Assembly (NCBI GenBank): GCA_963817525.1 | Contig: CAWFOU010000007.1 | Location: 608,001-672,000 of the forward strand | DNA: 64,000 nt | Direction: 5' to 3' | Source: an uncultured archaeon | GTDB lineage: Archaea > Thermoproteota > Nitrososphaeria > Nitrososphaerales > Gagatemarchaeaceae | Shown: piece by piece, positions 4,610 to 13,240 of the stretch | Position numbering within the stretch: position 1 is the first letter of the stretch | How the letters are laid out: each line of letters opens with the position of its first letter | Notes under the pieces: model-generated | Seen by the model: the letters and a program-made list of their open reading frames with translations, nothing else | Told to the model about the DNA's origin: nothing | The model's database searches: none | Made by a program: the position numbers and the translations under genes

Positions 4610-4732
4610 GTTCCGAGATGGCGGGTGATATTCATATAGAAAAGCATTCTGGATGGCGGCGCACGGCATTATCGGGCGCTTGGATTACCTCCGAAAGGAA
4701 AGATTACATAGCTACTGCGGTCCGTCGAAGTC

Positions 4733-4884
4733 GCCGGGGTAGCATAGCTTGGCCCATTGCGCCGGCTACGCCCAAGCGTGGGCGAGACTCATAATCGGCC
4801 AAGATGTGAAATCCGGAGAGGATAGCGATATCCCCGAAGGTCGCGGGCTCAAAATGCAGCGGCATGAGAATCCCGCCCCCGGTA
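4733..4884 (+). tRNA. Elongator tRNA-Met(CAT) with four introns (30/31: 4766-4786; 37/38: 4794-4810; 45/46: 4819-4839; 59/60: 4854-4870)
   Basis: Acceptor GCCGGGG/CCCCGGT-A; anticodon stem CCGGA/TCCGG with CT-CAT-AA loop; T-stem GCGGG/CCCGC. Each insert has a BHB-type motif. T-tract follows at 4887. Confidence 0.9.
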
Positions 4885-5065
4885 CCTTTTTTGGACTGCC
4901 TTAGCGGAAGGAGGACTTAGTTGTGGTCGTGGAGTGCCTACCGGCCCCGGAGATTCGCAATCGAATTCTCGAGGGTTATGATGTCTGCGCGAAGATTCGG
5001 ACGGTCCAAAGGAAGATTCGAGGAAATTCTTTGCGGTGTGAAAAATCGCTGAAGTTCATTGTAGG

Positions 5066-5139
5066 AGCCGCGATCGGGAATTGAACCCGAGACCTTTACC
5101 TTACCAAGGTAACGCTCTACCAGACTGAGCTATCGCGGC
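5066..5139 (-). tRNA. tRNA-Thr(GGT), intronless
   Basis: GCCGCGATAGCTCAGTCTGGTAGAGCG-TTACC-TTGGTAA-GGTAA...TTCAATT..TCGCGGCT cloverleaf. Confidence 0.95.
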
Positions 5140-5727: not shown

Positions 5728-5812
5728 GCGGGAGTCGCCCAGCCTGGTCAACGGCGCGAGGCTCAGGACCTCGTCCCTCAGGGGTTCGTGGGTTCAAATC
5801 CCACCTCCCGCA
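5728..5812 (+). tRNA. tRNA-Leu(CAG), intronless
   Basis: GCGGGAG/CTCCCGC-A acceptor; CGAGG-CTCAGGA-CCTCG anticodon arm; long variable arm. Confidence 0.95.
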
Positions 5813-5842
5813 CTTTTCAACCCGCCGCGAAGACTAGTTGTT

Positions 5843-13061: not shown

Positions 13062-13240
13062 GCCGGGGTGGCGGAGTCTGGTTAACGCGCGGGCAGTTCG
13101 CTCCGCTCCAAAAGAGTGCGCGAATCCGCATCTCGAGATCATCCGACTTGACAGCCCGTGACCTAACGGTCATGTGGGTTCAAATCGCGCGGGGAAAGGA
13201 CGTTTTACCTTCCCCGCGGGTGGAAGTCCCACCCCCGGCG
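13062..13240 (+). tRNA. tRNA-Ser(CGA) with three introns (31/32: 13095-13131; 37/38: 13138-13152; 59/60: 13185-13226)
   Basis: GCCGGGG/CCCCGGC-G acceptor; CGGGC/GCCCG anticodon stem; GACC-TAAC-GGTC variable arm; GTGGG/CCCAC T-stem. BHB helices GCGG/CCGC and TTCA/TGGA; the 37/38 BHB is weak. Confidence 0.88.

Follow-up and report, generated by a model that had tools for sequence, protein, structure and literature searches.

The window, the whole 64,000-nucleotide stretch of DNA that was analysed, contains a tRNA gene with the anticodon CAT that is interrupted by four short introns. At an estimated probability of about 0.88, this is a single functional elongator tRNA-Met(CAU) gene, carrying four bulge-helix-bulge (BHB) introns for processing by EndA and RtcB in an ordered splicing pathway. 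Each intron would be cut by the archaeal tRNA-splicing endonuclease, and RtcB would then join the exons. The existence of a four-intron tRNA-Met gene, proposed in an earlier note made from the letters of this DNA, is confirmed by four types of evidence. Firstly, the joined exons form a cloverleaf. Secondly, the splicing motifs at the insert boundaries outperform those in shuffled sequences. Thirdly, orthologs that lack individual inserts have the predicted exon joins. Fourthly, both the cloverleaf and the splicing motifs exhibit compensatory changes.

Gene structure and splicing motifs

The five exons and four inserts are listed in Table 1. Cutting the gene at these coordinates reproduced the originally described insert sizes of 21, 17, 21 and 17 nt, and their sites at 30/31, 37/38, 45/46 and 59/60. 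Half of the letters in the gene are intronic, as had also been claimed, within a precursor of approximately 152 nt. When joined, the exons total 76 nt, over the full length of which ARAGORN calls a tRNA-Met(cat) with a perfect 5-bp anticodon stem and a 5-bp T stem. Hence the cloverleaf envisaged in the earlier note does emerge on removing the inserts, with two blemishes: a G1.U72 wobble as the first pair of the acceptor stem, and a mismatch between U13 and U22. Such a G1.U72 wobble is unusual in an elongator tRNA. This pair (positions 4733 and 4883) is G.U in the window and its closest relatives, L001-L007, and G-C in all other aligned orthologs.

Table 1. Positions of the features described in the text, numbered within the window or, where C1 or C7 is named, on that contig of the assembly
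Feature	Position	Strand	Description
Box AAAGATTACATA	4699..4710	+	A/T-rich; ends 22 nt before the mature 5' end
Four-intron tRNA-Met(CAT) gene	4733..4884	+	five exons of 33, 7, 8, 14 and 14 nt, interrupted by inserts of 21, 17, 21 and 17 nt
Exon 1, 33 nt	4733..4765	+	tRNA positions 1-30: 5' strand of the acceptor stem, D-arm, first four anticodon-stem bases
D-loop stretch CTTGGCC	4748..4754	+	partner of the intron-2 loop (4797-4803) in the MFE fold and the duplex test
Intron 1, 21 nt	4766..4786	+	site 30/31; central helix CGCC/GGCG; intron-internal helix TACGC/GCGTG
Exon 2, 7 nt	4787..4793	+	positions 31-37; holds the anticodon CAT
Intron 2, 17 nt	4794..4810	+	canonical 37/38 (or 38/39) site; loop GGCCAAG complementary to the D-loop
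Intron-2 loop GGCCAAG	4797..4803	+	partner of the D-loop stretch CTTGGCC
Exon 3, 8 nt	4811..4818	+	positions 38-45; 3' strand of the anticodon stem
Intron 3, 21 nt	4819..4839	+	site 45/46; central helix CCGG/CCGA (3/4); internal helix GGATA/TATCC with GCGA loop
Exon 4, 14 nt	4840..4853	+	positions 46-59
Intron 4, 17 nt	4854..4870	+	site 59/60, T-loop; complete helix-bulge-helix-bulge-helix motif: T stem, CTCA/TGAG, TGC/GCA
Exon 5, 14 nt	4871..4884	+	positions 60-73; discriminator A; CCA not encoded
Run of six T	4887..4892	+	two bases after the gene
Long tRNA gene (one among others)	C1:227741-227896	+	
Long tRNA gene (one among others)	C7:181919-182054	+	
Long tRNA gene (one among others)	C7:817579-817714	-	
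Long tRNA gene (one among others)	C7:585512-585653	+	
Long tRNA gene (one among others)	C1:38483-38601	-	

Under the BHB rule, two 3-nt bulges flank a helix formed by the four exon bases preceding the first bulge and the four intron bases preceding the second. All four insert boundaries fit this rule, with flanking helices, and the central helices are those that had previously been described: CGCC/GGCG in intron 1 (4/4 pairs), CTCA/TGTG in intron 2 (3/4), CCGG/CCGA in intron 3 (3/4) and CTCA/TGAG in intron 4 (4/4). Introns 2 and 3 therefore have relaxed motifs, with one mismatch each in the central helix. The helices internal to introns 1-4 are 5, 2, 5 and 3 bp long, respectively, and in the canonical drawing the exon-side outer helix of intron 1 has just 1 bp. 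Intron 2 can alternatively be placed at 38/39, where the helix TCAT/GTGA pairs at 4/4 positions, including one G.U, and the spliced product is identical. Inserts with shuffled letters matched the observed central and internal helices 1, 178, 1 and 2 times per 20000 for introns 1-4, respectively, and all four motifs were never matched jointly (0/20000).

The same letters can be parsed as a gene with only three introns, in which a single intron of 37-38 nt replaces intron 2, exon 3 and intron 3. Plain spliced alignment without a motif term chooses this solution, which also has the top mean motif score in a motif-driven enumeration, and is still called as tRNA-Met by ARAGORN. Nevertheless, its anticodon stem contains two mismatches (C.C and G.G), against none in the four-intron parse; orthologs without intron 3 join exon 3 straight to exon 4; and the letters it needs are absent from intron 2 of other orthologs. 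This barely credible parse was rejected on the basis of its mismatched stem and its contradiction by the orthologs lacking intron 3.

Identity of the gene and its visibility to tRNA finders

Archaea need three CAT tRNAs, and all three genes were found in this genome: one initiator-like, one Ile2-like, and the four-intron gene. The initiator-like gene (contig C7, approximately 793,220-793,420, minus strand) has A1-U72 and a GGG/CCC anticodon stem; it is itself interrupted, with inserts in the D-loop and T-loop. The Ile2-like gene (C1:29167-29284, plus strand) starts with GGGCCCG and resembles the tRNA-Ile(GAT) of the same genome; it contains two introns, one of 22 nt in the D-loop and one of 21 nt at 37/38. 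The four-intron gene has the anticodon CAT and neither of the initiator marks, which are A1-U72 and a set of three G-C pairs at the base of the anticodon stem. The same split is seen in a complete relative from this order, between a GGGCCC... CAT tRNA and a GCCGGGG... CAT tRNA with a 30/31 intron, the latter being miscalled by ARAGORN. The four-intron gene is the ortholog of the GCCGGGG... CAT tRNA, which is widespread in archaea, and which we take to be the elongator tRNA-Met.

As the anticodon CAT alone cannot separate Met from Ile2, the gene might instead encode the AUA-reading tRNA-Ile2, with an agmatidine-modified CAU anticodon. This is very unlikely, given that the separate CAT gene on C1 resembles not only tRNA-Ile(GAT) but also the GGGCCC... 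CAT tRNA of the complete relative, whereas the four-intron gene is orthologous to the GCCGGGG... CAT tRNA, taken here as elongator Met. Exclusion and orthology together therefore argue, from sequence comparison, that the four-intron gene is distinct from tRNA-Ile2(CAU).

The only other call of a tRNA-Met by ARAGORN in the genome was rejected: it requires a 371-nt intron, folds poorly, and lies within an uninterrupted frame of 555 codons. With the initiator and Ile2 genes accounted for elsewhere, and this further call being poor, the four-intron gene is the elongator tRNA-Met, and the only one found. The identity originally proposed is therefore supported. The earlier note had associated a pseudogene with the presence of an intact tRNA-Met elsewhere; no second elongator Met gene was found in the 2.82-Mb assembly, for which completeness is 95% and contamination 8.75%, so that a further copy might lie in the missing part. 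When CAT loops bordered by 5-bp stems were sought, 512 raw and 10 filtered hits were returned, none of them tRNA-like, and all three real CAT genes were missed.

The unspliced gene was not called by ARAGORN on the window, where the only calls were tRNA-Thr (5064-5139, minus strand) and tRNA-Leu (5728-5813, plus strand). Rfam, applied to the window at the gathering score, recovered the same two genes and missed the four-intron gene, and the Rfam tRNA model applied to the whole 2.82-Mb assembly at E<=1 yielded 33 matches, 27 of them over the cut-off, with none at the four-intron gene. The prediction that standard scanners would overlook it consequently holds for both ARAGORN and the Rfam model. 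An elongator tRNA-Met that is essential, and the sole copy found, is thus invisible to common annotators, and as a result tRNA counts, and the completeness and codon-usage inferences drawn for these genomes, are too low. The adjoining tRNA-Thr(GGT) and tRNA-Leu(CAG) genes are intact and intron-free, within 1 kb of the four-intron gene, such that intron load differs sharply between the tRNA genes that adjoin at this locus.

Orthologs, flanking signals and splicing machinery

Orthologs were drawn from 41 related genomes, a pattern scan of public genomes (at least 120 loci), and a family-wide search of 97 genomes, in which the gene was counted as present at E<=1e-8 and was found in 49. They were parsed by motif-aware spliced alignment (140 and 35 loci), leaving out intron calls beyond position 62, where relatives ending in ...GGCA rather than ...GGTA generate spurious 3' "introns". 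For each of the four inserts there is some ortholog that lacks it and has precisely the join expected. The L008 group lacks intron 3, and its exon 3 is contiguous with exon 4; intron 4 is absent from L018, L056 and L103; both are absent from L017; L020 retains intron 1 alone; and L136 has zero introns. Intron 1, at 30/31, was found in every parsed ortholog of the family. The orthologs in Bathyarchaeia, among the matches listed, mostly have one intron of approximately 30 nt, at either 45/46 or 37/38.

Of the 49 gene-holding genomes of the family, 13 have the four-intron form, and these are spread across four genera (8 genomes in the genus of the window, and 1, 1 and 3 in the others). The other gene-holding genomes have three introns, at 30/31, 37/38 and either 45/46 or 59/60, or have two. 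Among the records with these forms, those that are named are MAGs of soil, peat and groundwater origin, under the titles Thaumarchaeota, Nitrososphaerota, Nitrososphaerales or uncultured archaeon. Hence extreme fragmentation of tRNA genes is not limited to hot-spring Thermoproteales and Asgard archaea, but extends to a lineage widespread in soil and groundwater, where it affects four genera or more. The orthologs with 0, 1, 2, 3 and 4 introns at fixed sites make up a natural series in which the gain and loss of introns could be studied. Four related genomes have two multi-intron Met copies on different contigs (L190/L192 in G048, L191/L193 in G057, L012/L217 in G015 and L010/L216 in G011); these could be real duplications, mixtures of strains within bins, or contamination.

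Covariation was assessed with an alignment of 23 distinct multi-intron orthologs from the family clade, from which identical copies had been dropped. The cloverleaf was paired in 460/460 cells, with 3 pairs changed on both sides. Of the 818 cells of the splicing-motif structure, 91.3% were paired, and 13 pairs had changes in both partners; this level of pairing was reached by 0/500 shuffles, and controls in which the motifs were slid paired in 36-52% of cells. For instance, position 57 and its partner in intron 4 are A-T in the window, G-C in 14 orthologs, and G.U in one.

These comparisons also bear on whether the 45/46 insert is an intron at all, as it folds into a clean hairpin of 5 bp within the variable region, and its central helix is mismatched in the window's genome. 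It might consequently be retained as a long extra arm, generating a class II-like tRNA-Met of 97 rather than 76 nt. However, the variable loop at this position has the normal length of 5 nt in close relatives, and the helix with the 3' strand of the anticodon stem pairs at 4/4 positions in L009, L132, L184 and L185. This helix also covaries with the stem: in L194 and L195, as read by eye, C27-G43 has become T27-A43, with the intron-3 partner of position 43 changing from C to T, and Bathyarchaeia orthologs with T41 carry an A in the intron. Retention of the insert is therefore exceedingly unlikely, and removal of all four remains the preferred reading.

The 12 letters of the A/T-rich box upstream of the gene (AAAGATTACATA) recur unchanged, and equally far from the gene, in all seven close orthologs, L001-L007, although their flanks differ. 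Judged by sequence, it would be a promoter-like box of the archaeal TATA type. T-rich stretches, with runs of 5-8 T, follow the gene in 6/7 of these orthologs, and the T-run behind the window's gene may be terminator-like.

A search of sequencing runs listed 20, of which 6 were RNA, with small shares. Four contigs from RNA libraries (four runs in four studies), of 152-237 nt, contain the unspliced gene of close relatives, which may reflect DNA carry-over or read-through. None contains an exon joint, although contigs could not demonstrate that spliced RNA is absent, and these contigs cannot tell precursor from DNA. Three of the four extend into flanks unlike those of the window, and one reaches upstream across the promoter box.

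The gene could alternatively be a decaying tRNA pseudogene that has fallen out of use and accumulated insertions. This would account for its being missed by standard scanners, its G1.U72 wobble, and the lack of spliced RNA in the four RNA-library contigs, which are possibly DNA. Yet every cloverleaf pair is kept across 23 distinct orthologs, with compensatory changes; the inserts are at splicing motifs, which covary too; the gene is the sole elongator Met candidate in its genome; it is conserved in 49 genomes of the family; and the promoter-like box and T-run are likewise conserved. Decay is therefore very improbable in comparison with a functional gene.

The machinery needed by such a gene is encoded in the genome. 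There are two EndA paralogs (PF01974/PF02778), each with both N and C domains, that are 29% identical. One of them has no histidine in the alignment at what we presume to be the catalytic residue, and therefore fits an alpha/beta pair. We infer from this presumed residue that the enzyme may be of the alpha/beta (alpha2-beta2) type that accepts relaxed motifs. RtcB is also encoded (PF01139, 480 bits). It matches in two pieces (profile positions 1-50 and 49-426) within one stop-free frame of 996 codons (C1:1102130-1104943, minus strand), which suggests an intein-like insert of approximately 480 residues.

Precursor folding and comparison with other interrupted tRNA genes

The 30/31 motif draws on C25-C28, and the 45/46 motif on C40-G43, which are the two strands of the anticodon stem, while the canonical 37/38 motif needs this same stem as its outer helix. 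The motifs therefore exclude each other. The sharing of anticodon-stem bases bears out the earlier contention that mutually exclusive folds imply ordered splicing, with the order itself being a prediction. The MFE of the whole precursor is -64.6 kcal/mol (z -2.7), and the corresponding structure comprises the acceptor stem, the complete intron-4 motif, the intron-3 motif, and a helix between the D-loop stretch CTTGGCC and the intron-2 loop GGCCAAG. A fold with motifs 1, 3 and 4 and this D-loop helix has an energy of -56.2 kcal/mol (-61.5 kcal/mol with the rest optimised), that with all four motifs together -45.7 kcal/mol, and a cloverleaf-like fold with motif 2 -26.6 kcal/mol. After removing introns 1, 3 and 4 in silico, the MFE structure consists of the anticodon stem and motif 2.

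The fresh transcript would accordingly be expected to fold with the intron-2 loop on the D-loop, a pairing that would keep the anticodon stem open and display introns 1, 3 and 4. Once introns 1 and 3 had been cut out, the anticodon stem would form and the D-loop would be freed. In this freed precursor the canonical intron-2 motif would appear, and intron 2 would be removed last. Predicted energies and covariation make it most likely that introns 1 and 3 would leave first, and intron 2 last.

The D-loop helix slides by two bases between groups of orthologs, and MAFFT columns disagree over its placement; it was therefore tested with duplex energies and shuffles. The sample consisted of 66 loci of the family in which the 30/31 and 37/38 introns are both present, representing 26 distinct combinations, as some genomes had been fetched twice. 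The duplex was present in 26/26 combinations, with approximately 5-10 bp, some internally gapped. Its mean energy was -12.4 kcal/mol, relative to -6.8 +/- 2.6 kcal/mol for shuffled introns, and the intron's own D-loop beat foreign D-loops in 24/26 combinations. The helix also covaries, with CTTGG found alongside CCAAG, and CCTGG alongside CCAGG, and G.U intermediates in L184, L186 and L198. Among distinct orthologs of other lineages with an intron at 37/38 but none at 30/31, D-loop complementarity was significant in 0/19 cases at the 5% level, against 9/12 in comparison. The sequences thus point to a D-loop helix tied to the 30/31 intron, albeit with both co-occurring in one family, meaning the link is confounded with descent.

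It is possible, although the odds are somewhat against it, that the 37/38 intron has taken on the role of a folding device, with its loop selected for pairing with the D-loop, thereby aiding removal of the 30/31 and 45/46 introns and fixing the order of splicing. If so, an archaeal tRNA intron would have a function beyond that of a tolerated insert, serving the removal of another intron. In the covarying helix between intron and D-loop there is a concrete example, open to testing, of RNA structure setting the order in which several introns are spliced.

The earlier note regarded four introns as going beyond what is known. This stands relative to the excerpted reviews, which give three introns as the maximum per archaeal tRNA gene (PMC4033280, PMC8450103), but not relative to a 2026 preprint on Asgard archaea, which in its available part describes, in silico, up to five intervening sequences per tRNA gene (10.64898/2026.10.13.758758). 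The gene is therefore a further multi-intron tRNA of a known kind, with an intron count near the record. A literature search for four- or five-intron archaeal tRNAs or bulge-helix-bulge motifs returned no description of a four-intron archaeal tRNA, and no description of a four-intron tRNA in the present lineage was found in the literature searched. Pairing between an intron and the D-loop was not addressed by any title or abstract found in a separate search for it. Hence the covarying D-loop:intron-2 helper helix is the one feature for which no description was found among the titles and abstracts searched.

The multi-intron tRNAs of Thermoproteales likewise have short non-canonical introns, each with a BHB motif, and a broad-specificity endonuclease, according to the same excerpts (PMC4033280, PMC8450103). 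Their neighbouring motifs can similarly be mutually exclusive, such that one intron must leave first, as noted in the excerpted description of tRNAscan-SE 2.0 (PMC8450103). They differ in having at most three introns in the review excerpts, compared with four in the present gene, which comes from a non-thermophilic soil and groundwater group, with relatives titled Thaumarchaeota or Nitrososphaerota, rather than from Thermoproteales. Spread by transposition between tRNA genes has been proposed for the Thermoproteales introns (PMC4033280, PMC8450103, in part). Incidentally, the DNA of the four-intron gene matches its own genome weakly at six other places, two of these matches having E values of 0.04 and 1.8.

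Asgard tRNA genes are also mostly interrupted, many of them repeatedly; their inserts are at splicing motifs, and annotators overlook these genes, as stated in the available part of the preprint (10.64898/2026.10.13.758758). They belong to a different phylum, and were described in a comparative census that extends to five intervening sequences per gene, and in that part mentions no helper helix between intron and D-loop. A parallel for the splicing order comes from a eukaryote, the red alga Cyanidioschyzon merolae, whose nuclear tRNA-Ile(UAU) has three introns, in the D-arm, at 37/38 and in the T-loop (PMC3728597, excerpt). By RT-PCR, both non-canonical introns leave before the 37/38 intron (PMC3728597), which is the same order as that proposed for the present gene, although it was established in the alga by experiment, whereas here it is only predicted. 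Closer to the present gene, the tRNAscan-SE 2.0 study constructed a clade-specific motif model and gives a count of 107 non-canonical introns for the genomes of Thaumarchaeota, the same broad lineage, and the excerpt mentions no four-intron gene (PMC8450103). The paper describing the soil family Gagatemarchaeaceae, which includes one of the named relatives, has 0 occurrences of "intron" and reports a GC range of 54-62% (PMC10640624); the GC content of the present genome, 61%, is consistent with this range.

Fragmentation of tRNA genes is genome-wide in the source organism. An anchor scan between paired acceptor strands detected about a dozen further long tRNA genes of 107-178 nt, including those in Table 1. 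Rough parses assign three introns each to tRNA-Tyr(GTA) and tRNA-Asp(GTC), and one or two to the others, among which the genes for Gly, Val, Lys and Leu have 2 each, with none of the parsable other genes exceeding three. A motif-driven enumeration with ARAGORN as judge, applied to 17 disrupted candidates, produced full-length calls for 14, none for 2, and too many sets for 1; its answers are ambiguous, and amount to a rough census only, in which the other genes have 1-3 introns.

A further such gene is within the window itself, at 13062-13239 on the plus strand (C7:621062-621239). This 178-nt tRNA-like gene was missed by both ARAGORN and Rfam, and has a GCCGGGG/CCCCGGC acceptor stem, an intact D-arm, a long extra arm, and a T-loop split by approximately 42 nt. 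Read by eye, it is a class II tRNA, probably of Ser(CGA) identity, in which some three inserts lie close to 31/32, 38/39 and 59/60.
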